In this document: piece after piece, positions 10,622 to 34,174 of the stretch
Numbering within the stretch: the stretch's first letter is position 1
How the letters are laid out: each line of letters begins with the position of its first letter
NCBI GenBank assembly: GCA_000934665.2
Contig: JYFJ02004169.1
Coordinates: 1-34,174 of the forward strand
From: Catajapyx aquilonaris
Taxonomy: Eukaryota
Direction of reading: 5' to 3'
DNA: 34,174 bases
The notes under the pieces: model-generated
Told to the model about the DNA's origin: nothing
Seen by the model: the letters and a program-made list of their open reading frames with translations, nothing else
Databases searched by the model: none
Made by a program: the position numbers and the translations under genes

Positions 10622-10773
10622 CTTTTCGGCTGCACCTTCCTACGTAACAAGTATTGCATTAAAGAAATTAGTGTTACACTTCCCAGGTAAACCAATAAAA
10701 TGATAACTTTTTGTTCACATTACAAACAAATATTACACTATTTTTATGGACTTACTTGTCTCTAGGCACTTAC

Positions 10774-15300: not shown

Positions 15301-18039
15301 GTATGGTCTAAGAAGTCATGACTTTTACAAATCCTGTTCCTGTCAGGCTATGAACGAATGCTTGCAGACAATCGCCGGGTAGACTAATAGTGATAGTACT
15401 CGTAAAACTAATATAGGGATGTGCAATTAGTTTTGGGTACCATTGCATAGTTAATGCATATGGTGCCATTAAAGTGTAGAGTGCCAGAAGGTAGAATATG
15501 AGGTAAACAACAACAAAGTACAGGGGTGTCACACCCGGATTTTTTCTCTGACAGGATTTGATCACCTTTTTCATATGGATGACCAGGGGACCAGGGCCGG
15601 ATTATTCGGAGGTCCTCGAGCTGGCTTTTGCTTCTTTGAAACTGGCAAAGCAGATGTGACGTCACGAAACTTGAAAGGCGCAGTATGCATTAACTAAGCA
15701 AAGGCGCCCAAAACTAATTGCACATCTCTATATTAGTTTGGTGATTAGGCTACTATCAGTCTACCTGGTGATTGTCTGTGAGTTTCCCTTCACCCTGTAT
15801 CTGGGTGTTTTCATCAAGAACACATCCCCACAGCCCTGACCTGGTCCCTAATGACTTTTTAAGTTCCCTACATTAAAGATGAAAGTCAGCATTTCAGACT
15901 AATGACACAAATATTGAAAAAAAGCAGTGCACCATTTCCTCACTAGGGAGGGCAAAACTATCTTTGCAGGGGTTCCAAAATTGCTATGATCATTGGGCAA
16001 ATACCCCAATACTGATTGCGTCAAGACAATATAGAAGTTTGTAGAAATAATTTCAAGCACAGCACACTTTTCGAAATGAATTTTTATCCATTAACCAGAG
16101 TCAGAAATATTTTTTTTCTCAAATAACATTAAGGATGCTTTACCCTCTTATATCCTCATTTTTTTTTACACATAAACAAATAACACATGAAAATTGAAAT
16201 GTCTGAAAATTTCTTTAAGCAACACTTACCAAGCTTGGTCAAAGTCCAGATCCTTTATGGTGTGGTAATCCCATCGTGTGTAGATGATAGTAGAAAATAT
16301 GCGCTCAGGTGCATCCGGTAAGGTTCGAAATTCATCATCTACAAATCGAACGAAAGATGATTGGGTTGTTTTCAACACACGAAAATCTTTCAAGCCTGAT
16401 TCCACATGTGGTTGAGCTGAAAAGTGAAACAAAAAAATAATTGATCTGGTCTATGGCGCACTGTAGTACACTAGCTCCTGGAGCAAAACTAACCTCCTCT
16501 CTTATTGATGATGGTACAAAACCGAGTGTGGACAGGTGAAGATAAAAATGCATGGTTATGACCTTTGCCATCCTTAGTTATTCTCTCCCATGGATGAGCC
16601 TCTATATATATTCTTGCCTTTATCACCTGGGGGTAATTATTCAGGAAATGATTGCCCAAGAGCAAGGCAAATCCCTCAGGACTGCTAATCTGAGAAAAAG
16701 CAAGTAAATGTCAAATACAGACTGTGGGTTAAAGGTGACAGTTCACCAAAAAATGTCAACCTACAATTTCCCATTTTTATAATGGCATACATAGTAGGTA
16801 GGAATACTTTCAGTAATCAAAGGCCAATAGGTCATAAGTCATTAATGCAATGACGTCAGCACATGTTACTAGATTGGCTTAGATCTCTAGAATGCTAGGA
16901 ATACAAACTTGCTCATAATTATTATTAGGCAAGGTAGCAAATATCCTGCAGGCTATTACACCTTGAGATATTTTTACGCAATGACAATCTCACACACAAT
17001 TGACCAGAAAAATATTTATGAATGAGCAGTAAGAATGCAGAACAATTTATCAAAAAGAAAACAATACACAGCCTATAACACAAAATTGTGTTACAGTGTC
17101 GTGGCATTGTCAGTCACGAGGCATACAATCTTTCTCACATTGCTACATCTTTTGAACTTTCTTTTTCCTTTCCTGCCCTTCAGTTACCATGCTTCATGGC
17201 CTCAGTTACCTCAGGCTCTGCCAACAGATTAATAAACTAAGTCAAATAAAACATGGAATACTGTTCCTATGCCTTTCAATAACTTGTGGCCCGATGTTTT
17301 AAAAAGATATACTAGCAACAAATGAAGCTTACACCAAAGCTGGATGCTTCTTGTTCATGGGATCCGTAATTGCATTTTTTGCCTATATTAGGGTAGGCCT
17401 ACTAAAATCTTGAGGTATGCGATGAAATGTACACATATGTACTATGGGCGCCAACAGAATTGACCGGAGTTGATGGGTATATGGCGCTATATACCCATCA
17501 ACTCCGGTCAATTCTTTTGGCGCCCGTAGTACATTTCATCGCATGCCTCAAATTGCAAATAAAATGACATTGCTAGTACCGTATTTCTATTATGGATTGT
17601 TCTGGATATCGAAGCCAATTTTTAGTAACATATGCTGCTTTCATTTCATTTCTCCTGACCTACTGATCTCTGATCCCTGGAAATACTTGCACCTACAGGG
17701 TGTTGCCTTAAGCCCATGTGCCAAGTTTGTAAAATATCAGAAAATGTGTGTGACATCTGGAATTTCTTTTGGGTAAATTGTCCTGGAAATACTGGAAGGT
17801 CCATTTTAAATACATACCCCATGCTTCTTGGCAAGAACATAAACAGTGTTTTTCTGAGAATCTGTAGCAACAATATCTTGATTGTCTCCATATATGTAAT
17901 CCTTCTTTGAATCCAGTGACAACCGAATGCTCACTTCAAACTCGCGAATTGAATGGAAACTTCCATCTCTTTTGACATGCAAAAGCTTGACAAAGCTTTT
18001 GCCATAGCCAGTGTCCAGAAATTTGTGTTCAGTAGACAT
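11498..18039 (-). CDS. UOX: Urate oxidase (uricase), paralog A; 5 coding exons, 297 aa, C-terminal PTS1 (AKL)
   Basis: Exons 18039-17818, 16689-16494, 16416-16230, 11842-11719 and 11662-11498 have GT..AG borders and consistent phases. The translation contains uricase motifs YGKS, ATDSQKNT, HPW, HNHAF, LKTTQSSF, RIFST, SPSVQNTLY, MPNKHYF and ends ...GRNLAKL*. AATAAA lies about 70 nt past the stop. Confidence 0.96.
12236..12592 (-). mobile_element. tRNA-derived SINE with (ATT)n tail and 16-bp TSD, in UOX-A intron 3
   Basis: Head accgaagcag..gctgctaatcgggaggtccgggatcaaatccc, core ggttttctgtggtttccc..aggccacagccgcttc, TSD ggcatcaatatgtgta at 12220-12235 and 12593-12608. Confidence 0.9.
13289..13663. 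repeat. Near-perfect long palindrome (3-nt loop at 13499-13501) inside a DNA-transposon-like element at about 13020-13790
   Basis: Centre ..gacaaactgattataag-cct-cttataatcagtttgtc..; the left arm carries an extra insert of about 45 bp. Flanks contain repeated ggggtcagttgtaaca/tgttacaactgacccc motifs. Confidence 0.9.
13849..14078 (-). mobile_element. tRNA-derived SINE (same head and core as 12236-12592) with 12-bp TSD
   Basis: A box TGGCATAGTGG, B box GGTTCGAATCCC, TSD gtcatccatacc at 13837-13848 and 14079-14090. Confidence 0.9.
15361..15797 (-). mobile_element. Tc1/mariner-type MITE family M1, copy with one truncated end and inverted interior
   Basis: Ends ...agtttcccttcaccctg|TA; the interior is the reverse complement of the copies at 27172 and 33072. 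Confidence 0.8.
17410..17551. repeat. Essentially loop-less palindrome, about 140 bp, in UOX-A intron 1
   Basis: gaattgaccggagttgatgggtatat-ggcgct-atatacccatcaactccggtcaattc core, extended by gcgatgaaatgtac/gtacatttcatcgc. Confidence 0.9.
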
Positions 18040-18949
18040 ACTTTCTGTAGAAAAAAATTCCTATCATGTATCATCATGCAAGTACAGGAGGCTTAGCAAA
18101 AATTTTAAAGCAGTTCCTTAATATAGGGCACAAACAGTACTTTGGCATGCTTATCACGAACACAAATCGTGGAATATAACAGTAAAGTCAGCTACTAATC
18201 ATGGTCATGTAATACATGCTTATGTAATCAACACAAGATGTGCTATGAGCATGAGTATGTTTAGTTCTTGGTTTACAAAAATGGATAGTTTGGACTGGGA
18301 TTTTATGAAATATTTAGGTAAGATAATATTAAATTCATTTTACAATGATATACTGTACTTGGATGTAATCAATCCCTTTCAAAATGAAGTACCGACTTCT
18401 CTTCTCCCATCCCATCCAATCTCTTCCCATATTTGGAGAACTGCATAAATCCTATAATTTTTGCAAAGATGGTCAAACAAAAATCATGTACTTACAATGA
18501 CACTGCAACTGCACCAAAGTACTTCACAACCTCACTGTGAGAAAGAGAACAACATACAAGTTCCAATCTGTAGACAAGACATTAAAAAATGACTGATGAC
18601 CTTGGAACGATTCCCTTCATGTCAAATTCCACCCTAGCCCTACTCTGCTGACAGATGACCCCATGATACTCTGTAAAGATTAAGTTCAGTCATGTGTGAT
18701 TATTAAAGTTTGTTATTGCACAGTTGCATTCGTTTTCATTCAGTTCCATAACATTTCATCTCATGCTGCTCCACTTTGTTCAGAAACTGTGTGTTGAAGG
18801 GTGGGTTTACAATATATTTCTTTTATTTAAACATGGGCAATGTCAGTCAGGAGAAACAACAACAATCATCTTGCTGGTATTTGGCAAACAAGAAAAGGAT
18901 GTTACAGACAGATGAAAAATTCAGTTTAGTATATGAGCTGGGGCTTTTT

Positions 18950-19260
18950 TAAAATTTTATTTTAATACCCCTTGCCACCCCTTACGGGGTATTCGGGGAG
19001 AGCCATTGCTCCTATTGCTCATATTGCTGCCTACGGGCAGGGGGACTGGGAGGGGATGTGCAAGGTGCAGTGCATCGACTAATAAGGTCATTTTGTGAGC
19101 TTCCCTGGGTGGCTTGGTCTGTCGGAAATACCACCTGAAACGAAGCCAGAGACGACCCGAGAACTGCACGAGATGAAGGGGGTATCCCCGGGTTGGGTTC
19201 GAACCGGGGACCTTAACATCCGTGGGCACGTACGTTACCGCATCGCCACTCCATCTCCCC
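18950..19260 (-). mobile_element. tRNA-derived SINE (third family)
   Basis: Minus strand ggggagatggagtggcgatgcggt (A-box-like) ... ggttcgaaccc (B box), ending in an A/T-rich tail; no TSD identified. Confidence 0.7.
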
Positions 19261-19585
19261 TGTTATAGTCTAATAGTTTGTATCAGAAGTAACTGTTTCC
19301 CTTTTCAATGAAAGAAAACACATTCATGGAAACAAGGATTTATTCAGTACATCAGACACAATTTTGGCTATCCTTGCAGCTTCCTTGTTCCAGAAGTAAT
19401 GGCACTTTTGACGCCTGTCGTGTAGCAATTAGGGGAAAATGTGACTAAAGTAAATGCTAGGAACAAAATGATAATGGAACATAACAGCACTAGGCTGAGT
19501 AGCTGTAGGGCTGAAAGATCTTGTCGATATGCAAAACACAAAGTTTGTGTGTATCCATGTCCAGACTAATTTAATACTCTTTAAG

Positions 19586-19836
19586 TGAAGCACCAAGAAT
19601 GAAAACACGCATAACTCCAAAATACAGTTTTTCAGGGGAACAGTTTTTCTGCCTCTTGTTGTGAGCACCTAAGTAGGTGAAACGGGTTTTTGCCCCTTTT
19701 TTTCTGTGGTGTTCCGTGTGGAATTGGGTTGTTTCCTCTCTGCAGCTGTTGCACCTAGGCTTGAGGTACCCCTTGTGATCATAAACAGAATATTGGTTAT
19801 TTTGGAGTTATGCGCGTTTTCATTCTTGGTGCTTCA
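19586..19836. mobile_element. MITE-like element with about 40-bp terminal inverted repeats
   Basis: tgaagcaccaagaatgaaaacacgcataactccaaaata ... tattttggagttatgcgcgttttcattcttggtgcttca. Confidence 0.75.
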
Positions 19837-22800
19837 AGTGTACCTAAGAGCTGATATTAATTGACACACTGATAGCCGAGATGCTAGAAAAGTCCAAAAA
19901 TCCAAACATTTCAGACATGCACAGAAGTTGATAAATGACACTGTTGCCTAAAATGCTTGCATTTTCAGTACCAGAAAAACTAAAGCAAACAACTGCTCAG
20001 GACCTAATAGGCCGGGTAGAATGAACATGGGTCAAGGGGGGCAACCTTGGTAGAACAAATAAGACTCTGTGAATATAAAAACATATATAAACCATCTTAT
20101 TCATTTTGAATTTGGACTGGAACCATGCGGAGGATGCACAGTATAAGAATGCGCTGGTGTCCAGAAAAGTAGTAGGCCTAACAGCTGTTGCTGATGCTGA
20201 GTGACAGTATAAAATTGGAATCATCACCTCTTTTCAATATTGCACACAATACTAATGAAAGTAACTTATTAAACAACCACCAGTGACAGCCAAAAGCCAT
20301 ATGGCACATTACAAGGTGTTTGCAAATGTACTGACAAACCTGTAAGGTTGCATCCCTAGGCACCAGAGAATCACTTTTAGTGAGGTGTCATCGGTCTCCA
20401 ATGCCCATTTACTGAGATAGTTAGCATTAATCAAAGAGTGAATTCCACCACCTCTGATGTTGTGGATACAGACTGACACTTCCATCACCTTCACGGCTGC
20501 CTACTACACCCAATGAGATACAATTTAAATTACATGACACCACAGCTATTATTAACCTTTAACATATTTCAAATTTAAAAGGCAAGGTCATGCAGAGAAT
20601 GTGCATGTGCCAGGATATTTTACATCGTGTATCTGACTCAGTAACAAGCCAGAGCAGGTCGACATCCCTACATAAAGAGTCACAGGAATGCAACAGTACA
20701 GGTATGTTGTATCAATCTGGAACACCTGCATATGGATTACTACACAAAGTGATTATTCAAACCTTGACCTATAAATGGTTGGCACAATTATCAAAATAGT
20801 AACTAAAACACATTGAGGCTACTGTGGACTGAGTTGATAAAAGCATAACAACTAAGACGGCAGATGATCACAATAAAAATACAGAGAGTACAGGAACTTA
20901 CACTGTTGTAGTGATCTTATTATGTAATTACTATTAGGAGTTCAAGAACCTTTCAAGACTCACCACCTGTACAAGGTGGTGGAAGTAAGGGGTAAGATCC
21001 TATGGAGAAAATTTCTCGAAAATTTGACGTTCTACCTCATGGACAGGTCAAATATGTCGAGGCATCATGTACTGCATATGGAAAAGTTCTTCCTTTACAA
21101 CAGGCCACATCTATACTGCTCTCATTATATCACAGTGTGTGTGAATGTTTAATGTAGTGAAGAAACCCATCATTAAAAATGCAAAAGAATTCATTTAAAA
21201 CATCTCACTAATTTGAATTTTTATTGTGAAGTGAACTCTTTATCTTACAGGCTCATGTTTTCTTTCCCGAGAGTATATCAGCATAATTTGTTCAACAATT
21301 CCATGACTGACCAAATACCACAATGAAGCAACTAAATTCACAATGCTTTAAAAAAATTGCAATGTTACAAAAGACATTATGCTTTCACCTGCATTACCTT
21401 AAGCATGTTCAAAGTGTTTCAAAAAAATACCAGATTTGCCATGTTGCTTGAGCAACTTGATAAATATAGGTGACTTACACTAGTTACACATAATATCAAC
21501 CAAACATCACTGCAGACACTCAATAAGTCAGTAGGCCAGTTTCAAAACCAGGCAACCTACATATTTCAGAACCAAATTTCCAGGAAAGGCGAATTTATGA
21601 TTTTGAGCTTTTTTTACGGCCCAGGGAAAAAGTAACATATTCATTATATGCTCTGCCACGTCTCCTATCACATATCCAGAGCATGGAAATCATAATATAT
21701 AAAAAAATCACAGTGATAAATTGAAAATATTTTATGATACCCTGGTTGTGAAACTGCCAAGATTGTTCAAGCCAGGCCGATAATGCAGGTCAATACTAAA
21801 AGCTCTACAAAAAGTAAATTTTAATAGCATAAGTGACGCATTATGAAAGTCGTTATGAGGGCTTTTAGACTCCAAACATTGCGGATTTTGGACTTTTCCT
21901 GGACTCCGGGAAGCATAAGACATGGGTGTGAAAAATTTCAGAGCTCTCAGAACCTGGGAAGTGGGTTAAGTAGGCATGATAAATATACAAATATATGTAC
22001 AAATTTTCAGCTTTATATTAATAGGGATGCCGCTTTAAGTGAGGTAATGCGGTATTAATTTGCAAATATTATACCTTGTCGGAGATGTATCGATGTATGT
22101 GATATCTCGTCAATTATTTAGCATTGTACAATATATGAACTCTGAGAAATTAACATCACATTTTGAAGAAACCTCATTTTGGCCATAACTGACACCCAAA
22201 AAAGGTCTGAGGGACTAAAATCAGGAAGCAAGTTATTCAGAAAGTCCAAAACGTGGGCTTTCATAATATATCTGTCTGATATATGATAATCTGGCCTGGA
22301 GAGACGGTAGGGTCGTTTGTGTGAATGTTTCCGCCGGCAGCTGTGGCGTCTGTACCCAGCCATCATATTGCCCCCACAGGAGAACATCGGAGAGTCCGAA
22401 GCACAGTCCGAAGCCAACCGATGATGCCCCCCCCCCNCCCCCCCCGGACATATCTCCTTGCCTCTCGTGACCTTGAGGACAGCGAAGCGAAATTCTAGGG
22501 AAATCTATAGAGCTTAGGGATAGGTCTATCTCCCTGCAAAATATTTTGGAAATCTAAAATTCACGAGCACACCTCGGGAATGACCCATATGGGATGGGAT
22601 TAAATATGATAGTGGGTTAGCACAGCCACAAGACACAATAATGGCTGGAATACACTATGCAATATCAGTCTCAGCACGATTGGTCTGATGCTGTGCAACA
22701 GCCAGAAAGAGCCAAGTTTTAAATATCTGGACTGACACTTGAATTGCAACTGTGTAATCACTGGGTATATCATTTGCAGATCATTGAAATCCCATATACC

Positions 22801-23103
22801 AAGTAATGCTGTCAAATTTCCATGTATCAGATATTTCGTGTTCCATGATTTATCACCAGTTCAGTGCCATTGGAATGATTGATTAATAAGAGTAAAACAC
22901 TTATATAACTGCAACTAGCCAAGGCCACAACTTCAGGGAAATGGATGTAGCTCACTGAAAAATGTGGATAATCAGTGTGTTGAGTGGGGGCAGAAGTGAA
23001 CAGGGTTATATCCCACTGGAATAAATTAACACTCACTCTGGAGGGAGAGATATAGATTGAGTTTCACATAGACCTATAACAGCAGCCAAACATACTCTGA
23101 CAT

Positions 23104-23840
23104 GGGAACGGTCAAGGTTGACCCTCTCCGATTTGGTTGAAACTTGCGATGTACACAATGGCGAAAGTTTTGGCTGACACTTTCCAGCCGTTTCTGAGAA
23201 ATGAGCGACAGAAACATCCGAATTTTTGGCCCTGCACAGAGGTCAGGCGAGAACGAGTGCAAGGAAGAGCTGATGGTAGTCAAGTGGATAGAGCGTTGGA
23301 CTTGTGATTTTGCCGGGAGCTGCTCTGCCAGCTCCAAATCCCTTCTACCTTGATTCCCCCCACCCCCTTTACCCCCTTTTTTCAATCCCATACCACCATC
23401 CCCTACTCCCCCACCAACATTTTTGTTTTCCATTGTTTCTTTGCTCCGGTATTTATTATGAGACCATCAAGCTGCTTTCTTTCGCTTCTGTCAACTGCGA
23501 AGAAAGAGCTTCAACACCTAAAATTGTGTAATGGGAAGCCATCAGCTTTTGGCCTAGGTTGAGATGAAATAGCGAGTGCTTCGGGAGCATATTGGTGTGT
23601 CAATTATTAGCGTAACATATAGCCTGCTGTGGTGCATTTGCTTTGCTTATTCTTATCCAATCCATCCTTCTCGCCCGACCTCTATATGTGAGGGGGCCAA
23701 AATTCGGATGTTTCTGTCGCTCATATCTCGGAAACGGCTGGAAACTGTCAGCTAAAACTTTCACCACTGTGTCTATGACACACGAATGACCCTTCAAGCA
23801 AGTTTCAACCAAATCTGAGGGGGTCGACCTTGACTGATCC
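23104..23840. mobile_element. Non-autonomous DNA transposon with about 130-bp imperfect TIRs
   Basis: gtcaaggttgaccc..atttggttgaaacttgc..gagcgacagaaacatccgaatttt is mirrored by aaaattcggatgtttctgtcgctc..gcaagtttcaaccaaat..gggtcgaccttgac. Confidence 0.8.
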
Positions 23841-24325
23841 CTTGGAAGTGGCAGTGAGAGTGTGCGCTTTGTCAGACTTGAGATTTCTTCAAAATCTCTT
23901 TATCAGTGGTGGAACTAGCCACAATGGGCTCTGGTTCAATATTTCATAACGGGGGGTCATTTCCCCCACTTGCATATTAGGCCGATTTCTCGCGTCAATT
24001 TTTTGCATGTTTATTTTACTTTACAATTTTACTTTCATGATTTGAAGGCCCCTAGTTTGGCTGAAATACCTGAATTGCTCTAGTTCCACCTTTCATCTCA
24101 ACCGTGAGACGGAGGGTCCCTCTCACCCGAAGTGGGTGATGGTCTGCTTGACTCTCATCTGCACTATATGCAGAGCGAGATCCTATCATGTCCCTTCACA
24201 GGAACAAAATGTGAAGTCAGGTGCATAAATAAAGAACGTCAACCAGTCAAAACTGACAATAATCTCCGCACATAAGACATCACACATAAAGTTGACATGT
24301 TAACATCTTGTAGATTCTCAGGAAA

Positions 24326-24607
24326 GAGTAACCCCTACTGGCGTGGGGAAGGTGGCAGGGTGAGTGGCAGCTTGGCTGTGTCGCAAAGGCAAGGATGCAA
24401 GGATTGATTTTTTGGATTTTTTAAGGGGGATGCTGTACCAACCTAACCTAACCAAGCCTAACCTTCCTTCCTTTCGGACACAGACCTATCTTCAGCCACA
24501 CAGACCTATCTTCAGCGGATACACGCCTATCCTTTATCCTTGACTTTGCGACACAGCCCGCTGCCCCCATGAGTACTACCCTCCTGCACGCCAGTAAGGG
24601 CAACTAT
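24326..24607. mobile_element. Palindromic MITE-like element with a central (CCTAA)n stretch
   Basis: ccctactggcgtg..ggctgtgtcgcaaag..caaggat is mirrored by atccttg..ctttgcgacacagcc..cacgccagtaaggg; centre aacctaacctaacc. Confidence 0.7.
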
Positions 24608-25072
24608 ATCCGATTCTCATCCTCAGCAGTCCATTTCATACGTACAAGTATATAGGAACAATATCAATGCATGATGAGACCAGCCAGTGTCTTCCAAGAC
24701 ACATCCTTTTACAGACCTGGTCAAGGCAGGGGAGGACAACTTCAGTCAAATGCTACACTGGATGTGGCTCCTAATGGTTACCAAAGAACTCTACCGCTGG
24801 TGGACTTCGACAGAAGGACACACAGTCATGTCTATTGGGAATATGTCTGCTTGCAGCCTTGAATTACTTGGGTCAGTCACTATTCAGTCTTGTTTGTCAT
24901 TTTAGACCAAACACCCCTCAGTTTTCCAAGGTGAAATGCACACATGAGATCAATAATTAATCATACATTATATTCATAAACTGCAAAAATGCTAACAATG
25001 CTAACTGTATTAGAGAACATATTAGAATATGCTATAAATAAAAGAGCACCGAATATTAATGCTGTAAACAAG

Positions 25073-28000
25073 CTACTTGCCAAACCTCAGAAGGGCACTG
25101 AGAAGTGGTGTTTCCCGCCCTTGGGACACCAACCTCTCCAACTTGTCTGTGAAGGATGTAAGTGGCTGTTGAAACTTGTCTGGGTTATTCCTAAACTTCT
25201 CAAGGCAGCAACTAATGGCTTCCCTCAGACGATTCTCCACATCCTGGACTAGACTTGAACTTGGGCTTGACACCAGTGGCAATTCATCTAAGTTTGATGT
25301 TTCATCATCACACGCATCAAAGTCCCACTTACTCTCCATTCCATTCTGGGTCATCTCAGCAGAATCATTGGTGTCATCCAATTCACTTGCGGACCTGGGA
25401 GGATTTATCTTGAAAAGGACGGTGCGGGTTTCCTCTTTGCTGAGTGACAGGAGGTTAACTGCCAACACATTGCGACGCTGGGCCACCACATATTGATGCT
25501 CACATGGTGTCCCAACCATGCCCTTGGCACATGAACACAGTCCTAATGCCATGTCCAAATCAAAGCTGTTACCTGAACTGGGGTCAGTCACCAGGTAGAG
25601 TGCATCAGAGAGTTGCACTACCTGGAAACGCTCTATCTGCAGCTGAGAAAGCACCCCAAACCTCCAGTAGTTCAACTCCAAGAAGCGGTTCTCCAGTGCC
25701 TGAAAGAAGTGGGACTGAGTTGCATGATTGATGGAAGGAATCAAATGAAAAAGGAGTTGTCTCTACCAATTATAAATTATTATTATTAAGGTGCTATTAT
25801 GCTGCTTAACACTATACCAAAGAGGTAAAATTGACTGAGTCTTCAAAAACATGGGAAACTCTGTACCAGGTAATGCCTCACTAGTCACTGCCTGCAGGCC
25901 TACTACAAAAAAATAGACAGTAAAACTGCAGAAAACTATTCTTCCTCTGGGTGAGATTAAAAGTAAGAAACAAGTCCATAGGTGGGGGGTGGGTTCGTGT
26001 CGTGGGGATGTGTGATAATCAAATTTAATTCAAAACATTCGTGCTTTAGAGCTGGGAAGAATTAGGCAGATATCGCTTTTATGTACTTCTCCGACTCTCA
26101 TACTCTGCCTAATTCTTCCCAGCCCCAAAGCACGAATGATTTGAATTAAATTTAATCATCACACATCCCCATGACACGAACCAACCCCCACCTATGGACT
26201 TGTTTCTTACTTTTAATCTCTCCCAGAGGAAGAATAGTTTTCTGCAGTGTTACTGCCTATTTTTATTTAATTCTTTTCATCATCAGAATTAAGTAATAGG
26301 GCACTGAAGGGTCACTGATGACATCTTGAATGTCACTTATCGCAGCCGCGGCACTGTTTCTATGGTGTTGAGACTTATATTTGTGCATTTGTCTAATCAT
26401 GGAAGGCATATTGAACTGTTGTTATTAGCCGAATAATACCTGAACCATTTTATCCGCGGACCCTAGGCAGACTGAAACATCCGCCGTACAACTCAACCAA
26501 AAAAAAAANNNNNNNNGGGGCAATTTTTTCCCCTTTTGGTTGAGATATTGTTGATGCTGAGAGGCATTGAGCAAACAAATGGGGACATTTATTATTATTA
26601 TTAAGAGCCTCTCTGCATCGACTCTCAGACGAGTACATGGGTCATGACTCATGATGAGTTTCTCTGTGGGGAAGAAAGAGAGCGAGAGCAACAAAACGGA
26701 CACTATCGAAATCGCCGCGTAACTCAAAAAGTAAAGGCTTTTTTCAAAATACGGTAGGCAGAAGGACACCTCCTGGGAACATTGCGGTTCTCATGACACA
26801 TTGTATGACCCTCTACGACGCACCGTTTAGGCTGTACCCTTGTCAGACTAACGACACTTTTTTGAACTTTGACCCCAGCTGGTGACCCCGGTAATGTCTC
26901 TAGTTGTTGTTTATCTATCTAAAGTTGGTAACTGGAGTGAGCGGAGTGTAAATATTGTTTCCGATTTGAAATCGATTAACCCAATCGGGAGTTATGAAGT
27001 CGGCAAATTAACATTGGGAGCGTAGCGATTCCATACTATTCGTTTTCATGGGCCCACAGGTCCCTGCCATGCCAGCTGCCCCGCGAAGCGGGGCAACCGG
27101 CATGGAGGAAGAATAGAAAAAATAAGAGCTGTGGAGATAAGCATGAAAAATAACAAAATTCTGATTAAATACAGGGTGAAGGGAAACCCGCAGACATTCG
27201 CCAGGTAGACTGATAGTACTCATAAAACTAATATAGGGATGTGCAATTAGTTTTGGGCACCTTTGCATAGTTAATGTGTACCGGCGCCACCCAAGTTTCG
27301 TGACGTCACATCCGTTCTGCCAGCTTCAACGAAGCAAAATCCAGCTCAAGGGCATCCGAATAATCCAGCCTTGGGTCCGGAACACATCGTCCATGTGCAA
27401 TAGGTGATCAAATCCCATCAGAGTAAGAATCCGGGTTCAACACAGGTGCACTTTGTCGGTTTTACCTCATATTTTACCATCCGACCCTCTACAGTCTACA
27501 CTTTAAAGGCGCAGTACGCATGAACTATTCAACGGTTCCAAAGACTAATTACACATCACTATATTAGTTTTGTGAATACTATCAGTCTACCTGGTGATTG
27601 TCCACAAGTTTCCCTTCGCCCTGTATATGGGAAACTATGTTGCATAGGAAGGAACCTAAATCACCAATTCTCTTGAACATCTGTCACCACTATTGTAATA
27701 TTGTACCTGTGTAAGGCGGTTTTCATAGTAGCAATCCATCCTAGTAAGGATAAAGTCCAGCTGCTGTGCCAGAGTAAAGTTCTTTGTCCTCACCAACACC
27801 TTGTCTTGCAGCACCACTGCACCAGTTTCACATAGGTTGTTGTCAATGTCACCAGTGAAAGTTACGTCATTCTGACAGCAAAGTGCCCATGTATTTCGCT
27901 TATCATATACAGACTGCACTTGCTTAATATAGGAGGGGTATGAACTTGCTACAGGGTCACGAGACACCAAAGAATACTTGTCTTGCAGATCATTTGCACT

Positions 28001-31000
28001 CTCCGCATACACCATTGCACGTAGCAGCTGGAATAGGTGAGGCCGATGAGAAGGTAGCACTTCACTCTTCGTGTCCCATAGGAATTGCCACATACCCCTG
28101 AGTATGTGCACAGGGCACAGCAAGGTTTCTGACTGAAACACACTGTGGAGAGCATTGTTTTCTGATGTACTTTCATCAGCCAGAAACAGGACTGGACCCT
28201 GATGGCTACCTCTTCCAAAGAAGGACAATGCTCCATCTTCATCACCTTCCTGAGGAAGTATCTCAACCAGAAGACGAAAGGCAGTAGTTAGTGATTCTTC
28301 TGATTCAGATGAAGTGGCCACAACTCCCAAGGGGAGTCCCCCAGCTGGACTATCTGCTAAGAGTAGGAAGACACGATGCTTCTTGCGATCCACTTTGCGA
28401 GATGAATCCACAAAAACCATGTCTTGACACCTTGGAAGGTTCGTATGTACCCGCCGCATCAGTGGGGTACATATGGCTGCTGCAATTGATTCCTCACCCA
28501 ACCGAACTAGTTTGGCACAAGTCATACCAGCCCGAGCATTGTAGGCAGCAAATGATTCCTCAAGGGAGTTCAAAATGGACTCATCTGAAGGCATGCCATT
28601 CTCTTTCCGAAATATTTCATAGAATCTGTAAGGAAAAAAAAAAAACATGGATCCATCAGGCCATCAAAATTAGGACTGTCAGCCTATATACTGATTAATC
28701 TAGTACAGGATGGGGCAAAAGTCATGGGTGGATAAAAACGACGCAGCAAGGCATAAGTAACGAGCGATTATATATATTTTTTAAATTACACTACACAGAG
28801 AAAGATATGCCATTTATGGATCAAGGTCCAAAAAAGTCACTTCTTGAAAACAACACCGGATAGATGTCCACCTTTGCGGGCAACACATTCCTCCAAGCCC
28901 CGGACGAAACCATTCATAACGCGCTCCAGCATGTCCAGGGGAGTGTTTCTCACGGCGTGTCTTATCTGATCCTTAAGATCAGCCAATACACCACCGTGTC
29001 ACCCTAACATGTGTCCAATAATGCACACATTGGATATGGAATAATAGGCATACTGCCTACTACATACAAAAAGGCATAATAGTCCTTTCATCCAAACTAT
29101 GACGAGTTGTGGCATAATGGCATGCAGCAAATATTGGCGAATTTGCAGTTTGGTGCAATATAATTATGGTTGCTATAACTCACAGGCATTTGTTTCTAAC
29201 CCAAGGGGACCATTATTAGAGATTTGCATGTTACACTTCCAAATGTGGGGGACACTGGCATTCATCTTTCCCTAACAACGTCATAAATGCCAAGTACTTA
29301 TAATAGCAAGTACCAGGAACCAACTGTAACTTGAATTAACCTAAATACCACTTTATCTCACCTATAACACCAACTTGTGTCAGGATTATATCTACGGTCA
29401 GCCAAAACCTTGCGGTAATTATCTCCATGTTCAACTTGCAGGTCATGTTTATGCAATCTCATGACTGACAGGGGTGTGTGACCAGCTTTGAAGAGTGCCA
29501 CAAACTTTGCCTTCACATTCCCATCCACATCTCGATAGCAGAGTACATCAGTGGAGTCAATCGGATGGTTGTGTTTGTGCCTAAGTCGCACAAGCATGGG
29601 ATGAGATGGAAGATGTGGGTCCTTGGACCTGAAATCCAAGATATCATTAGTGTTTAATGTAAAACTGGTTCCCTTCTTCTCTCACCTTAATCGCTGAACC
29701 ACCCGCTTCACTTGAATCATGAGCTTTGCATTACATTGAGTGTTCTTTTTATGAGAATTATGATCCCTACGAGGACGAGTGTTGTGATGGCATCGAAAAT
29801 CTTCCTAGAGTGTGCAACATATGTTTCATTATATTAAAGCCAAATGTGTAGCACCAACACACTTACCTTGTAAACATTCTTAAGTCCACTCTCAGAATAT
29901 GTTCTGTCTACTCGCCATGTAGTCAGAGAGCTCTTCTGAAAGTCATCTTTCCAGCTTCGAGCATTTGGTTCTGATTGAATGGGAAGGCGTAACACACAGG
30001 TGAAGCCTCCATCAAACCTTTCAAACTCACACAACTTGTAATCCCAGCCTATAGGTAGCAACTCCTGAAAATGTACAACCCAAATTAATATCATTTTGAG
30101 AAAAATGTTCTACACAGTGTCATGACAAACAATGAAACAAAGCACATAGTTTTGCCTGAAACAGCATTCAACTGTAAGTTTTTATCAATCATCTTCACAC
30201 AAGTCTTTCATATCTTTAGAAAATATTTTGGTTCCTAAATATTGTACAGTGGGGGAAATTAATGGAGAAGCACAAGTATCACCACCTGGCGGAGCTTTTC
30301 CTTTACATAAAGCTGCTTCATGTAGAATTGTAAAGGAAAAGCTCGGCCAGGCAGCGATACTTGTGGTTCTCCATTAATTTCCCCCACTGTACTAACAAGA
30401 ACTTACTATCCATGTAACCCATACTGTACCTTCAGTTCCGGATACATCATCACACTTTGTGACCTACAGTTACAGCTCACTTCAGACCCACATTTTACTT
30501 TGGGTGCAGATGTAGCGTCATCCCTGTCAAAAATTAACATATGTCAAGCACACATATTCATCACATCACTAGCTCTTTACGCACATTCTTAATGTTGACT
30601 CTTCCTCCCCGTCCATGAGAGGGCCTTTCAACATGTTGGCTATCTCTGAAGCCAAACTCTGGTGTCGCTTTTTACTCTGTGCAGATGACAATGATTTCCT
30701 CTTCCTCCTCTTCCTCTTCTCAGCTCCACTACTCCTTATTGTGTCATTCCCAAATATCTCTTCCAAGTCATTGTAATACTTCCACTTCTTACGATTTGTC
30801 CCAAATAGAGCTCGAAAGTCCATAACCTTCCTGTATTTCTTCTCCAACTTCCGGAATTTGCAGACACATATGTCTCCAGTGACAGTGACCCCACACTGTT
30901 GGCTCACCTTGCTTGCCACCTCATTCCATAACAGCATGTTGACTGGTTTGTCACCCCATGGCTTCGGCAAAATCAGCTTGCAGTGCTGAACTAATGATTT

Positions 31001-33859
31001 AGTCAGATTCTCTTTCCACTGAAATGTTGCATTGTCGCTGCAACTTCCCTGAGCTGAAAGTGTACCAAAGTTTGACTATTGTTAATGAACTGATGCTCTC
31101 TACTCCAGACCAGTTTGCTCCAATTTCAACTATGCCCATTAAGAACAACCTAAGATATGTACATTTGACTCAGGCACTTTCATTTGACCCAACCTAGTAG
31201 TCTTCTACTGGTAAAACAGGTGCCCCAGGAAAGGTTCATGCCCCCTGCATCTACTGCAAACCTCCACACAGAGCAGTGAATTGCCCTGCGTCAAGGGCAG
31301 CTGCTCTGTGAGCAATCAGCAGTACAACATTTCACTTTGCCCTGCAATTTGGCCCAGGAAGTCTGGGGTACATGCAAAGCGTGTACAACTTGCACAGGGC
31401 ACCAGTTTCACCTCCCTAGTTGTTTTACTTGTTTATTCTGCTTTATCACTGACTGTCACTACTCTCAAGAAATGCTATCATAGTAATGATCTTTGAACAA
31501 TAATTCACCTCATAACTTGAACACATAAATGCATCTGCGTGAAACAATCTACCACGTTATCAAGTAAACTTTCCCCAGAACTTCCCATTCTTAAAGCATC
31601 ACTTACATGTATTTTACAGGGGGTTCGAAATGTCAGGGTAGTTTTAAATGATCACTAGTATCACCCAACGTAGTTATTTTTTTCCAGTTTGTTGAGTCCT
31701 AAACCAGGTGCCAAAGTATTCCCAAGTGGTTGAATATGACAGTTTCTATACAGGGTGTTAATCCTAAGGGTGTCACCAGAAAAGGTGGTGGTAGAGGGTG
31801 CAGGTGTGAGCATTTTTGCATAAGGAACTAGGGGTCGGAAACGCGCCCTCACCCAGTCACTCCGCCGCGTGCCGCACACCTCTTGCACACTGCCTGCCGC
31901 AAACTTGAAAGGGGAGTAACTTGGTGAGGGTGCGTTTCCGACCCTTAGTTCCTCATGCCAAAATGCTCACACCTACGCCCTCTACCACCACCTTTTCTGG
32001 TGACACACCTAGGATAACACCTTGTATAATAGGGCACCTAGATCGGGGTGCAACATGCTCCTAAAAAATAGCAGCTGCAAGTGAAATTTCCTATAACTAA
32101 TGAGATCCACATACTTGGAACACCCTGCATAAGCTTGGATATGTATGATGAGAATGCTTCTCTACTACAAACTAATACGTGCTTTACAGTTGCCCCTGTC
32201 GCGAATGTACCTGCTACATGACATTGTGATTCCAGCTGTTGTTCTGGTTCTGGTTCCTGCTCCACAATGATGAACTCAGTGGGTGAATTACCACCTTCAC
32301 TAAGTGGATCTCGCTCAGTAAGGAATGATTCACTGGCTACCTCTTCTTGTATTAATTGGACAGGGGGCTCTTGTTCAACGGATGGTGGCTGTGTCGTAGG
32401 TGATGGTGCACACACAATCTGTTCTTGCTGCACCCATGCATGAATAGGCTGGGACTGTAAGGGATGGTGCACCCATGCCACCTGTTCAGGGCCTGCGGTG
32501 GTGTGGACAGGCTGCCACTGTGGAACCGTTGCCCACTGAGCCTGTTGCATAACTTCATGACCAACAGGGGATTGCAACTCTTCCTCTGCTACAGTAGGGG
32601 GCAATGGCAGCTTTGCACTGTCATCTGGAGACACACCAAACAGGCCTTGACCAGCTTCTCCTTCACCATGATTGCTGGGGACCATGGAAAATCCTGTAAA
32701 GTGTTTGGAAGATAGCTTCAAAAAATATCCCTGAGAAGCTTTATAATCAACTAATAGCAACGAAATTTATTATAAAAAATATGTCCCCTGTTTCAGAAAT
32801 GAGCTCAATTCTGTGTTTGTGAAAATCTTGTGGACTTCAATTCACTTATGTTTTCTCCCCTACAAATATGGGAAGACGCTATGCAAACAGTAATGGCATC
32901 TCTGGGCCAAGACGCTGCGCACCAAAGGGGTACGAATTCCCATTAATATAATTATGGCCACTACTGTATATAAGCTGTGCTATTATAAAACAGAGGGCCA
33001 CACATTCAAAACAATGTAACATAAAAGTGTCCTGCTTTTGCCTCAAGTCTAACAGATGCTATATGCAAATACAGGGTGAAGGGAAACTTGCACCCAATCG
33101 CCAGGTAGACTGATAGTACTTGTAAAACTAATATAGGGATGTGCCATTAGTTTTGGGCTCCGTTGCAATGTGTACGGTGCTGTCAAAGTTTCATAACGTC
33201 ACATCCGTTCCGCCAGCTTCAAGGAAGCAAAAGTCAGTTCTAGGGCCTCCGGTCCTTGCCTTGGTCCCCTAACACATCGTCCACGTGCAAAAGGCGATCA
33301 ATTCCCGTCAGAGTAAGAATCCGGGTACGACACCCATGCACTTTGTCGTTTTTGCCTCATATTCCACCATCCGACCCTCTACACTTCAAGGGCGCCATAC
33401 GCATTAACTACGCAACGGAGGAAAAAACTAATTGCATATATTAGTTTTGTGAGTACTATAAGTTTACCTGGCGATTGTCCGCAAGTTTCCCTTCACCCTG
33501 TATACAATTATTATTAGTACCATACTGCTTGTATGCCTGCTTGCTTAAGTGCTCTCTGCACAATCTGATAATTTGGCAACCCTTTCGGTACACTACAATA
33601 CAGTACAGTAGTTACTCAGAAATCAGCAACAACTTCACAAAAACTGACCAGTTATTTTCAAAAAGTCCCCTACAATGAGCAATTAAAACACATTAGTTTG
33701 GATCCCTCTTTTCCTAAACACTGTTCATAACCCGTCACACATCTCATATCCTCTAACTCTCAGTATACCTTCTGACACCTCGGTGGCAATGATCTGAAAG
33801 CTTTCATCCCGAATAAATGCCAGCGCCAGCAAATTCCCACCACCACTTCGTCCTGCCAT
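25073..33859 (-). CDS. 9-exon gene, about 1088 aa: trihelix/Myb-SANT-like domain fused to a MULE (Mutator) transposase-derived region with a SWIM zinc finger
   Basis: Exons 33859-33769, 32693-32211, 31053-30585, 30523-30430, 30064-29867, 29804-29686, 29628-29362, 28625-27707 and 25699-25073 all have GT..AG borders and matching phases (3267 nt, no internal stop). Start context is caaaATGG. Exon 3: W..L..LWNEVA..V..TGDICVCKFRKLEKKYR..WKYYNDLEEIFG. Exons 6-7: FRCHHN..KNTQCNAKL..HNH. Exon 8: FVDSS / GGLPLG / FLADES / LLCPVH / NNLCE. Exon 9: CSCAKGMVGTPCEH. Confidence 0.85.
25909..26264. repeat. Long inverted repeat (arms about 160 bp, loop about 30 bp) in intron 8 of the MULE gene
   Basis: actgcagaaaactattcttcctctggg..gctgggaagaattaggcaga is mirrored by tctgcctaattcttcccagc..cccagaggaagaatagttttctgcagt. 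Confidence 0.9.
27172..27623 (+). mobile_element. Tc1/mariner-type MITE family M1, full copy, TA TSD
   Basis: TA|CAGGGTGAAGGGAAAC ... GTTTCCCTTCGCCCTG|TA; imperfect TIRs about 100 bp. Confidence 0.88.
28706..28987 (-). mobile_element. 3' relic of a Tc1/mariner-superfamily element (transposase C-terminus plus terminus)
   Basis: Minus strand encodes LADLKDQIRHAVRNTPLDMLERVMNGFVRGLEECVARKGGHLSGVVFKK* (stop 28837-28839), the typical Tc1-like C-terminus, followed by ...cccatcctg|TA. Confidence 0.8.
30247..30389. mobile_element. 143-bp Tc1/mariner-type MITE, TA TSD
   Basis: TA|CAGTGGGGGAAATTAATGGAGAA ... TTCTCCATTAATTTCCCCCACTG|TA; almost wholly palindromic. Confidence 0.9.
31751..32024. mobile_element. 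Tc1/mariner-type MITE, TA TSD, TIRs about 100 bp
   Basis: TA|CAGGGTGTTA..gtgtcaccagaaaaggtggtggtagaggg ... ccctctaccaccaccttttctggtgacac..taacaccttg|TA. Confidence 0.88.
33072..33500 (+). mobile_element. Tc1/mariner-type MITE family M1, full copy, TA TSD
   Basis: TA|CAGGGTGAAGGGAAACTTG ... CAAGTTTCCCTTCACCCTG|TA; colinear with 27172-27623. Confidence 0.88.
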
Positions 33860-34174
33860 TTTGGGTTTGGCCAGCTGCATTCAGTCATCGGCATACCTGT
33901 TCACGAACTAAGCTTTGAATATGTGACGTCATCGGTTCTGCTGTCCGATATTTTCTTATCAAAATGCCAATAATATAATACACATTAAAAAATTTACTCC
34001 TGTAAATTATTTACGTCAGCTGTAAACATTATTCTGGTGGATGCAGGTTAGTCATATTATATACGAACGAGCCCGCTTACAAAGAGAACTCGCACAGGCC
34101 AGACAGCCACGTGAGATTCATTGCTGCTCCGAGTGCCCCCCAACTGTGTCTCGTGTGTCTGTCAGAGACAATGG
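33860..34174 (-). promoter_or_regulatory. Probable 5' UTR/promoter of the trihelix-MULE gene, with a CRE palindrome
   Basis: Directly upstream of ATG 33859; TGACGTCA at 33924-33931 and TTACGTCA at 34011-34018; relatively CpG-rich. Confidence 0.35.

Follow-up and report, generated by a model that had tools for sequence, protein, structure and literature searches.

A Myb/SANT reading frame adjoining a complete MULE transposase gene in Catajapyx aquilonaris: a candidate host-transposase fusion

Layout of the locus

The window analysed here is a stretch of 34,174 nucleotides of Catajapyx aquilonaris DNA (contig JYFJ02004169.1). On its minus strand, between an ATG at 33859 and a TAG stop codon at 25075-25073, lies a candidate gene made of two parts: a frame coding for a Myb_DNA-bind_4 domain and, on the same strand and after a spacer of 28 nt, a complete MULE transposase gene, whose own start exon is followed by five others. 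In silico, in-frame splicing can merge the two into a single protein. The features are listed below, with residue numbers following the 1073-aa model of this protein; MITEs and hairpins are given without strand.

33769..33859, minus strand: candidate exon 1, from sequence reading (ATG 33859, donor CAGAAG/GTATAC)
33066..33515: MITE in intron 1, same family as 27157-27629 and 15361-15805
32211..32738, minus strand: exon 2, Q/P/E-rich, internal ATG 32685, donor TAGCAG/GTACAT
31761..32015: MITE-like hairpin in intron 2 (103-nt arms, 90% complementary)
30581..31053, minus strand: exon 3, full Myb_DNA-bind_4 domain, KRKRRKRK basic stretch, acidic tail
30541..30568, minus strand: spacer of 28 nt, from the Myb stop codon to the MULE ATG
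30430..30540, minus strand: first coding exon of the MULE gene (earlier 'exon 4'), ATG 30540, 37 aa, CxC motif
30244..30392: MITE-like hairpin in the intron from the MULE start exon to exon 5 (64-nt arms, 92% complementary)
29867..30064, minus strand: exon 5, family homology from its first residues (ELLPIGWDY...)
29686..29804, minus strand: exon 6, first half of a WRKY/FAR1-type zinc finger (C435, C454)
29362..29628, minus strand: exon 7, second half of the finger (H489-N-H491) and helical linker
27707..28625, minus strand: exon 8, MULE catalytic core (D632, D709, C729-x2-H732, E825)
27157..27629: MITE lying between exons 8 and 9 (113-nt arms, 84% complementary)
25904..26269: pair of nested MITE-like hairpins, also between exons 8 and 9
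25073..25699, minus strand: exon 9, SWIM finger (C920-x-C922-x8-C931-x-H933), family C-terminal motif, TAG stop

An earlier note on this DNA, made from the sequence, had described MITEs in the introns, and six MITE-like hairpins with arms 84-93% complementary were indeed found, all of them intronic. Within the window the MITEs recur, and no exon sequence does. An assembly gap of 8 N lies at 26509-26516, near the hairpins of the exon 8/9 intron.

The earlier note had also joined nine exons into one open frame of about 1088 aa. An open nine-exon join exists, the best one measuring 1103 aa with an exon 3-4 intron of just 61 nt; joins of 1087-1088 aa need poorer splice sites, and that length was not retained. 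Open joined frames are obtained with 9 direct donors and with 307 'middle exon' combinations, and such a frame is weak evidence when taken alone.

A complete MULE transposase gene

Exons 5-9 have many relatives among MULE/SWIM proteins: phmmer returned 1423 matches at E<=1e-3, 184 of them at E<=1e-30, with a best value of 5.7e-68. In the printed alignments homology is continuous over junctions 5/6, 6/7 and 7/8, and the spliced 8/9 join agrees with the family consensus. The MULE protein is 30-46% identical to its relatives, the closest named ones coming from echinoderms, fishes, a nemertean, a snail and insects. A quick tree placed the gene on a long branch of its own (length 1.34; median 0.77). 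Because it falls outside the fish-plus-echinoderm clade (SH-aLRT 97) of this quick tree, it was rejected as an ortholog of the fish gene 'si:dkey-75a21.2'.

The Mutator architecture claimed for the C-terminal part was recovered in full when conserved columns were inspected. In the zinc finger, C435 and C454 (present in 37 and 38 of 40 relatives, respectively) and H489, N490 and H491 (each in 40 of 40) are all kept, as are C920, C922, C931 and H933 of the SWIM finger, each again present in 40 of 40 relatives. In the catalytic core, D632, D709, E825 and C729-x2-H732 align with invariant or nearly invariant columns; in alignment A1, whose 30 rows are exon 8 of the window and 29 relatives, D73 and E266 are invariant and D150 nearly so. 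A1067 and F1071 are kept in exon 9. Of the 62 columns with 85% conservation or more among 40 relatives, 53 are kept here; the relatives themselves keep 50-62.

Profile searches of the kind suggested with the earlier note gave a direct match for Myb_DNA-bind_4 (see below) and none for the MULE and SWIM domains: at E<=1, Pfam found neither MULE (PF10551) nor Transposase_mut (PF00872) on exon 8, and no SWIM on exon 9. The assignment of these two exons therefore rests on their relatives, among which PF10551 was detected in 32 of 46 (E<=0.001) and PF04434 in 8 of 46. A likeness to ZSWIM1/ZSWIM3 was seen on exon 6, as a weak ZSWIM3_N match (E 0.024, 15.6 bits for a cut-off of 27.8). The ZSWIM1-3_RNaseH-like profile was present in 10 of 46 relatives (E<=0.001), two of them above the cut-off, and had no match on exon 8 at E<=1. 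From these sequence comparisons there is no evidence of orthology with vertebrate ZSWIM1/ZSWIM3.

The segment at 30430-30540, counted earlier as exon 4 of the fusion, is not a linker within it. It begins with an ATG, ends in ...YPELK and is followed by a phase-0 donor (AAG/GTACAG at 30430). An HMM of the N-termini of 25 relatives gave 56.8 bits when this exon was joined to exon 5, against 46.9 for exon 5 alone, 48.9 with the exon-3 tail and 50.2 with the unspliced leader; 56.8 bits were reached by only 6 of 1000 shuffles and 3 of 634 genomic 37-mers. The layout of the start exon is identical in two relatives, L013 and L041. A start at ATG 30094 (leader MILIWVVHFQ, in frame) was discarded, as its 50.2 bits make it less family-like. 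We conclude that with the earlier 'exon 4' the coding sequence of the transposase itself begins, and that the MULE half is a complete gene of 746 aa which, having this start exon with ATG 30540, could be translated alone.

The Myb/SANT exons and the junction between the halves

Exon 3 matched Pfam PF13837 (Myb_DNA-bind_4) with an E value of 1.8e-9 (38.3 bits for a cut-off of 27), over profile positions 3-89 of 89, and its nearest Atlas clusters were also Myb_DNA-bind_4 (PF13837, score 0.92), in line with its first description as a trihelix/MSANTD-type domain. Exon 2 lies within a stop-free frame of 242 aa, the second longest in the window, where 0.02 such frames are expected; the longest frame in 100 shuffles was 231 aa. 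It gave no Pfam family and no usable Atlas match, and is probably a disordered coding region. The open frame of exon 1 is 51 aa long, a length for which about 262 frames are expected by chance in the window, and it had no Pfam match at E<=1. It is in frame only via a weak acceptor at 32738, a stronger one at 32730 being out of frame; speculatively, exon 1 may be 5' UTR, or no exon at all. Exons 1-3 had no relatives among longer proteins, which is weak evidence, and phmmer found no match to them among 193 MULE relatives (best E 0.59).

If left unspliced, the Myb frame stops at TAG 30571-30569, three codons past the donor. Two candidate donors were found at the end of exon 3, 30585 (AAT/GTGCGT) and 30581 (TGC/GTAAAG), and each offers a route into the transposase. 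In the first route, donor 30581 is joined to acceptor 30064, the MULE start exon is skipped and the product is 1073 aa long. In the second, donor 30585 is joined to acceptor 30523, which lies inside the MULE start exon and is the one that the nine-exon fusion would use; the intron is then 61 nt and the product 1103 aa. Both routes read through without a stop. Measured against the donor consensus, TGC/GTAAAG is without G at -1 and +5, and AAT/GTGCGT without G at -1 and A at +4. A derivation of exons 3 and 4 from a single ancestral exon, split by a frameshift, was considered and rejected. The exon-4 frame, read by eye, is closed upstream by TGA 30546-30544 and TAA 30579-30577, so that at least two changes would be required.

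These observations bear on a reading without fusion, which we hold unlikely, if a serious contender. The locus would produce two separate proteins from overlapping or alternative transcripts, a MULE-derived one of 746 aa starting at ATG 30540 and a Myb/SANT protein of 319-367 aa ending at TAG 30569. Such a reading accounts well for the intact, family-like start exon, for a length of 746 aa that fits typical relatives (about 720-830 aa) and for the stop codon of the Myb frame; the mediocre quality of the fusion donors and the 61-nt intron of one route also speak for it. Independent transcription units are hard to fit, however, into a locus where the two frames are 28 nt apart and where neither AATAAA nor ATTAAA occurs in 30580-30065, the 516 nt before exon 5, so that a separate terminator and promoter would have scarcely any space. 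On a shared mRNA, the downstream frame would be poorly translated without an internal promoter. Moreover, no relative has an upstream Myb partner: 28 of the 80 relatives' loci gave 188 ORFs of 60 aa or more, and none of the 99 that lie upstream on the same strand and reach 72 aa has the domain.

In a two-protein locus the Myb protein might be a DNA-binding partner of the transposase, or an unrelated neighbour. PIF/Harbinger elements provide the model for a partner, as they encode a DDE transposase and a Myb/SANT-like protein separately (HARBI1-NAIF1). The present locus is like them in that a trihelix-type Myb/SANT frame adjoins a DDE transposase gene, and unlike them in that the transposase belongs to the MULE superfamily. 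DDE_Tnp_4 was absent from the eight gene frames and from 114 of the 118 other window frames of at least 62 aa, the four frames outside this Pfam scan being microsatellite-derived.

Transposon ancestry and origin of the locus

Metazoan MULEs bounded by TIRs have the same domain order as the MULE half (CxC N-terminus, C-C-HxH finger, DDE core with CxxH, SWIM) and share exon boundaries with it before the 'LP' motif, after residue 66 and at 193-197. An AG directly precedes the ELLP-equivalent codon in L007, L013, L037/L043 and L041, the boundary after residue 66 is also present in L007, L041 and L003, and a break at residues 193-197 (the end of exon 7) was seen in seven relatives' loci. By this comparison, acceptor 30064 is the ancestral exon-2 acceptor of the MULE family. 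At least three introns lie at positions where TIR-bounded transposon relatives also have introns, the TIRs measuring 46-108 nt at several of the loci that share these positions, and the eight-intron structure, first taken as a sign of domestication, is consequently no such sign. Unlike these relatives, the locus shows no TIRs in the window, has Myb/SANT exons upstream and carries an extra intron between exons 8 and 9, which is absent from 10 of 11 relatives' loci.

Flanking TIRs of 42-108 nt were found at 6 of the 11 relatives' loci examined, in elements of 6.5-9.8 kb (L013, L010, L024, L074, L040 and L045 are among the TIR-bounded relatives), and one assembly contains at least 12 relatives' loci. 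The 5' TIR of such elements is close to the gene start, that of L013 ending 30-115 nt before candidate start codons. Around the present gene, no TIR pair flanking either the whole unit or the MULE half was found in the window, including the 315 nt upstream of exon 1; a TIR may lie beyond the window end. Between 30541-34174 and 18100-25072 no pair of inverted repeats was found (best match 14-16 nt, E >=0.19), and the single copy of the MULE family's TIR-end motif in the window, at 1171, is a long way from the gene. A 15-nt inverted match (30545-30559 / 24839-24853) was considered as a TIR remnant and rejected as chance: it beats 300 local shuffles, but chance has produced a better one in the 7-kb target. 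No target-site duplication lies beside it (flanks 'tgatgtgat' / 'ccaatagac'). The original statement that neither TIR nor target-site duplication is visible thus stands.

It is improbable, in our estimation, that the locus is an ordinary MULE copy, possibly mobile or recently immobilised, which carries a captured Myb/SANT fragment in the manner of Pack-MULEs and whose TIRs are beyond the window, too short or degenerate. Pack-MULEs are non-autonomous plant elements bounded by TIRs and containing captured host gene fragments; the locus resembles them in associating MULE-family sequence with a piece of an unrelated gene, and differs in having a complete transposase and no TIR seen. True transposons among the relatives, an exon structure that is that of the transposon family, an intact DDE triad, the shortness of the sequence upstream of exon 1 and the existence of relatives with other added domains (THAP, Peptidase_C48, C2H2) are what such a copy would lead one to expect. 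The failure of every search for an inverted pair, for a nearby TIR-end motif and for a target-site duplication weighs against it, and so do two further facts. The six intronic MITEs, with their diverged arms, indicate long residence, and searches with exon 8 found no protein more than 46% identical, in libraries from which Catajapyx aquilonaris itself may be absent.

The same MITEs give an idea of the possible constraint on the locus. If their arms were identical at insertion, neutral divergence amounts to 3.5-8%. Under the assumption of perfect arms at insertion, and of insertion after the arrival of the gene, the chance that no nonsense codon would have appeared at such divergence is 0.036-0.0005 for the MULE frame and 0.16-0.016 for the Myb frame. 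That the frames are intact despite six intronic MITEs suggests selective constraint. This bears on the last alternative, a functionless relic in which a dead MULE copy lies beside a dead or unrelated Myb-like frame, open by chance. Exon 1 is not significant and exons 1-3 are without relatives among longer proteins, as such a relic would have it. We nevertheless regard it as very improbable, given frames of 242, 335 and 229 aa that are far beyond chance length, a no-nonsense probability of at most 0.036 for the MULE frame, and the retention of 53 of 62 conserved columns with every catalytic and zinc-binding residue.

The reading that we favour, although we grant it slightly less than an even chance, is that of a young host-transposase fusion, in which upstream exons are spliced to the acceptor that the transposon brought with it. 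A MULE transposase copy, otherwise complete, would have lost its TIRs; the Myb and MULE parts would most likely be carried on a single primary transcript; and alternative splicing, by the route 30581 to 30064 or 30585 to 30523, would attach the Myb/SANT exons to the transposase, an origin by 'transposase capture'. What results would be a nuclear protein that has two modules for binding DNA and a catalytic core, possibly still functional; Myb-only and MULE-only products would probably exist alongside it. A Myb domain above the Pfam cut-off next to a MULE gene complete from family-typical start to stop argues for the fusion, and so does acceptor 30064, a transposon-supplied site of the type known from host-transposase fusions, in the accessible part of the literature on them. 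The Myb exon fills the space where TIR-bounded relatives have their 5' TIR. The 28-nt spacing, the lack of a poly(A) hexamer, the stop-free routes and the suggested constraint point the same way, as does the N-terminal extension, which recurs at the 'LP' point in the family (7 of 40 aligned relatives have 200 to about 270 extra residues upstream of this motif).

Several points speak against the fusion. The MULE gene keeps its own ATG exon, skipped by the 1073-aa route, which argues that this start is still in use; the Myb frame has its own stop, the donors are mediocre, one intron would be 61 nt, and in-frame GT sites are common. The Myb domain is found in none of the relatives: Pfam detected it in 0 of 46 and 0 of 9, and tblastn of exon 3 against 80 relatives' loci gave nothing (best E 0.83). 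The Myb plus MULE architecture is for this reason without comparative support.

Known fusions such as SETMAR and KRABINER exemplify transposase capture, in which upstream non-transposase exons are spliced in frame to a transposon-borne acceptor, and for which RNA support and purifying selection were required, according to the accessible part of Cosby et al. (bioRxiv 10.1101/2020.05.07.082677). As in the fusions described in that part of the preprint, the transposase lies here on exons separate from those of the other domain; unlike in them, the added domain is a DNA-binding Myb/SANT rather than KRAB or SET, and the whole transposase is retained, catalytic core included. In the main text of this preprint, as accessible, the terms MULE, Mutator, MuDR, SWIM, Myb and Harbinger have 0 mentions each. 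As for MULE-derived genes, 'FHY3-like' ones are described, in the accessible portion of PMC10027918, as patchy across animals, with none reported in human. By the descriptions given in that portion, FHY3/FAR1/FRS, MUSTANG and the animal FHY3-like genes are TIR-less and combine a FAR1-type finger, a MULE core and SWIM, as here; no Myb/SANT module is described there for any of them, unlike what is seen at this locus. We found no report of a Myb/SANT plus MULE fusion in the literature searched, and no case among the 193 sampled relatives.

A bolder proposal, which we find possible but doubtful, is that a Myb/SANT gene was spliced onto an immobilised MULE at its ancestral exon-2 acceptor, in an animal with a vertebrate-type urate oxidase, bringing together two unrelated DNA-binding modules (trihelix Myb/SANT and FAR1-type finger) and an intact DDE nuclease core. 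The protein could then be a sequence-targeted recombinase or nuclease, and not only a transcription factor. As the DDE triad is intact, the 'transcription or chromatin factor' initially proposed is no better supported than a nuclease or recombinase.

An animal MULE family with conserved introns in TIR-bounded elements calls for caution in using introns as evidence of domestication. Should the halves prove separate, interest in the locus would be modest: it would be an ordinary immobilised MULE gene adjoining a Myb-like gene. A real fusion would mean that the ways in which animals build DNA-binding proteins from transposases extend to the Mutator superfamily and to a Myb/SANT partner, and the capture would be seen early, with the start exon, the ancestral acceptor, the upstream stop and a candidate donor still within 520 bases. 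RAG and some other domesticated transposases are recruited working nucleases, and the intact DDE triad raises the question of whether here too a working nuclease, beyond a DNA-binding domain, may have been recruited.

Exon map and open frames

The earlier note had described nine minus-strand exons (E1 to E9), in which a Myb part (E1 to E3) is joined to a Mutator-like (MULE) transposase half (E4 to E9). Every exon boundary listed here lies at a GT-AG junction, as that note had stated.

Exons of the gene
33859-33769, minus strand: E1, candidate start exon
32738-32211, minus strand: E2, frame rich in Q/P/E
31053-30581 (alternatively to 30585), minus strand: E3, Myb/SANT domain
30540 (or 30523)-30430, minus strand: E4, MULE start exon
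30064-29867, minus strand: E5, family homology begins
29804-29686, minus strand: E6, first half of zinc finger
29628-29362, minus strand: E7, second half of zinc finger
28625-27707, minus strand: E8, catalytic core
25699-25073, minus strand: E9, SWIM finger and stop

The nine-exon ORF was indeed uninterrupted when 30585 was joined to 30523, with a length of 1103 aa; the length of about 1088 aa proposed earlier was not reproduced with good splice sites. Also open were eight exons without E4, joining 30581 to 30064 (1073 aa, the model used for residue numbers below), the MULE part alone from ATG 30540 (746 aa), and the Myb part alone to TAG 30571-30569 (367 aa, or 319 aa from ATG 32685). Since 9 direct donors and 307 "middle exon" combinations are in frame, openness of the joined frame is in itself weak evidence.

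The longest three frames of the window are those of E8 (335 aa), E2 (242 aa) and E9 (229 aa), with chance expectations of 0.0002, 0.02 and 0.04 respectively; the longest frame in 100 shuffled windows was 231 aa. The E3 frame, 168 aa, is not exceptional in length. E3 matches Pfam Myb_DNA-bind_4 over profile positions 3-89 of 89 (E 1.8e-9, 38.3 bits, cut-off 27), and its neighbours in the Atlas protein cluster resource concur, so that its assignment as a trihelix/Myb-SANT domain stands. E1 is unsupported, because its frame, only 51 aa long, is not significant and is in frame only via a weak acceptor. About 65 nt upstream of its candidate ATG lies the palindrome TGACGTCA (33924-33931, minus), a cAMP-response-element consensus. 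The fourth longest frame of the window, 182 aa at 3614-4159 (+), had no Pfam match.

The MULE half and its transposon relatives

A search with E8 by phmmer (exhaustive) retrieved 1423 proteins at E<=1e-3, 184 of them at <=1e-30, the best at 5.7e-68 with 44% identity. Named relatives come from a crinoid, a sea cucumber, a sea urchin, several fishes, a nemertean, a snail, a thrips and a beetle. Nothing above 46% identity to E8 was found in three protein searches; this says little on copy number, because the species may be missing from the libraries. Three profiles had been proposed as a check: Myb_DNA-bind_4 was found on E3, whereas a Pfam scan of E8 and E9 gave no direct MULE or SWIM match, these being present among the relatives (PF10551, MULE, in 32 and PF04434, SWIM, in 8 of the 46 long relatives scanned).

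When the model was aligned with 40 full-length relatives, picked from 169, it kept 53 of 62 columns conserved at >=85%, the relatives themselves ranging from 50 to 62. Kept residues include those of the zinc finger (C435, C454, H489-N-H491), the catalytic D632, D709 and E825 plus C729-x2-H732, those of SWIM (C920, C922, C931, H933), and the C-terminal A1067 and F1071. The catalytic triad is intact, and the MULE architecture recognised earlier (zinc finger, core with CxxH, SWIM) was right, as these columns indicate. Local alignments with relatives show no break at the E5/E6, E6/E7 and E7/E8 joins, which confirms those introns, and the spliced E8/E9 join agrees with the family consensus.

Metagenome contigs scanned with an alignment of E8 relatives yielded 80 loci (numbered with L), at least 12 of them from one assembly. 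Terminal inverted repeats (TIRs) flank the MULE gene in 6 of 11 loci examined for inverted repeats.

TIRs of relatives' loci: positions, length, complementarity
L013: 375-420 and 6867-6912, 46 nt, 100%
L010: 317-367 and 10040-10090, 51 nt, 98%
L024: 289-396 and 8475-8582, 108 nt, 96%
L074: 3333-3383 and 11514-11564, 51 nt, 100%
L040: 7861-7902 and 15724-15765, 42 nt, 98%
L045: 7408-7460 and 16210-16262, 53 nt, 92%

Element lengths range from 6.5 to 9.8 kb; a GC.A.ATTTTT-like motif is common to four TIR ends (L013, L010, L074, L040), and in L040 the 7 nt AACGGGG adjoin both element ends. By sequence, relatives of the MULE half are real transposons.

For a comparison of exon boundaries, the model was searched by tblastn against 11 loci. 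In L007, L013, L037/L043 and L041, an AG stands immediately 5′ of the codon that matches the first residue of E5. In L007 and L041 the end of E5 (residue 66) is directly followed by a GT, for which L003 has the corresponding acceptor. The E7/E8 junction, at residues 193-197, coincides with a break in seven loci; others, such as L040 and L045, are uninterrupted at that point. These common boundaries imply that at least three introns were inherited from the transposon family, and the reading of the intron-rich structure as a sign of domestication was not upheld. The E8/E9 intron (25700-27706, 2007 nt) looks lineage-specific, its position being read straight through in 10 of the 11 loci; three MITE-like hairpins lie within it, as does an assembly gap of 8 N (26509-26516) that makes its true length uncertain.

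Full-length relatives have 13-65 variable residues before a conserved "(I/L)LP", in many cases including a CxC or CxxC motif. In the 516-nt E3-E5 interval, the frame from ATG 30540 encodes 37 residues ("...SCNC...YPELK") up to a phase-0 GT at 30430 and, joined to E5, reads "...YPELK/ELLP". The exon boundary is at the same place in the TIR-bounded L013 ("...CSFC...VNILT/GYLP") and in L041 ("...VCDC...ISKLQ/DIFP"). An N-terminal HMM built on 25 relatives gave 56.8 bits for E4+E5, 50.2 for the unspliced leader with E5, 48.9 for the E3 tail with E5 and 46.9 for E5 alone; 56.8 bits or more were attained by only 6 of 1000 shuffles of matched composition and by 3 of 634 37-mers taken from the genome. 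E4 is the start exon of the transposase itself. Its score, with a layout as in relatives, indicates that the MULE half is a complete, family-typical 746-aa gene.

The Myb frame next to the MULE gene

No Myb domain was found by Pfam in the 46 long relatives, nor, at a looser threshold, in the 9 whose N-terminal extensions are longest, nor in 99 upstream same-strand ORFs of 28 loci. Likeness to exons 1-3 was absent among 193 relatives (phmmer, best E 0.59), as was Myb likeness in the 80 loci (tblastn, best E 0.83). In these sets, the Myb link is not a trait of the MULE family. Other additions occur in single relatives, namely an N-terminal THAP domain in P0154, a Peptidase_C48 (Ulp1) domain in P0092 and C-terminal C2H2 fingers in P0112; in 7 of the 40 in the alignment, "LP" is preceded by 200 to ~270 additional residues. 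Elsewhere in the window, 114 of 118 frames (the four left out are microsatellite-derived) gave no Harbinger-type transposase domain; the real protein-family matches were five uricase frames only, one further frame giving a low-complexity, sub-threshold match. The uricase frames belong to two tandem urate oxidase copies (Uricase, PF01014) downstream of the gene, at 9956-10639 and 16229-18060 (minus). Profile positions 2-139 are covered by a single 146-aa frame in the first and divided between 17809-18060 and 16492-16710 in the second, so the copies differ by an intron.

In L013, the 5′ TIR ends 30-115 nt ahead of candidate start codons; the Myb exon occupies this space at the present locus. No inverted repeats pair 30541-34174 with 18100-25072, and the lack of a visible TIR reported earlier holds within the window. 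We conclude that the transposon 5′ end was lost or replaced and, as far as the window shows, the MULE copy is immobilised. A 15-nt inverted match in the 28-nt spacer between the two frames was rejected as a TIR remnant: no target-site duplication accompanies it, and chance is the best explanation. With only 315 nt upstream of E1 in the window, there is room for a larger element including the Myb exons; a transposon, whether ordinary or larger, that carries a captured Myb fragment is unlikely.

The Myb stop (TAG 30571-30569) and the MULE ATG (30540) are 28 nt apart, and between 30580 and 30065 there is no AATAAA or ATTAAA, only one AGTAAA. Given so short a spacer and the lack of a poly(A) signal, the two parts would likely be co-transcribed on one transcript, from which the Myb exons could be spliced into the transposon's own downstream acceptor (30064), as in host-transposase fusions. 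That a fusion isoform is made is a serious possibility, which we advance tentatively. Two in-frame splice routes support it. Against it, the Myb frame ends in a stop codon of its own, the transposase half has kept its own start exon, chance in-frame GTs are easily found, the candidate donors are mediocre and one route would require a 61-nt intron. The same stop and start would suit two separate proteins only, an outcome we consider rather doubtful.

Constraint and known systems

MITE-like hairpins were confirmed in the introns: the 8.8-kb unit has six, all intronic, with arms 84-93% complementary, and the remaining 25.4 kb of the window ten. Two of the three copies of a ~450-nt MITE family with long inverted arms (15361-15805, 27157-27629 and 33066-33515; 77-91% alike) sit in the gene's introns. 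On the assumption that the two arms of a hairpin started out identical, ~3.5-8% of neutral divergence has accumulated since insertion, and by substitutions alone the probability of no stop is 0.036-0.0005 for the 746-codon MULE frame and 0.16-0.016 for the 319-codon Myb frame. As stop-free frames are improbable at this divergence, purifying selection would be favoured under these MITE-age assumptions, more clearly on the MULE half; that the locus is a neutral relic is very improbable.

Fusions of host genes with transposases, and host genes derived from MULEs, are both established kinds. For the former, the Cosby preprint (bioRxiv 10.1101/2020.05.07.082677) describes a mechanism in which host exons are spliced to a transposon-supplied acceptor, as at the present locus in silico; its main text does not mention MULE, Mutator, MuDR, SWIM, Myb or Harbinger. 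A limited literature search over titles and the openings of abstracts, which is not proof of absence, found no published report of a Myb/SANT-MULE fusion. MULE-derived host genes include FHY3/FAR1 and MUSTANG in plants, and "FHY3-like" genes that are patchy in animals (PMC10027918).

In a quick maximum-likelihood tree with 47 relatives, the model stood alone on a long branch (1.34 vs a median of 0.77). It fell outside a fish and echinoderm clade (support 97) that includes the fish "si:dkey-75a21.2", and orthology with the latter was rejected. Sequences of that name from three percomorphs, with other fish sequences, group there with echinoderms. The clade seems to span the deuterostomes and may represent an old lineage that was domesticated or inherited vertically.
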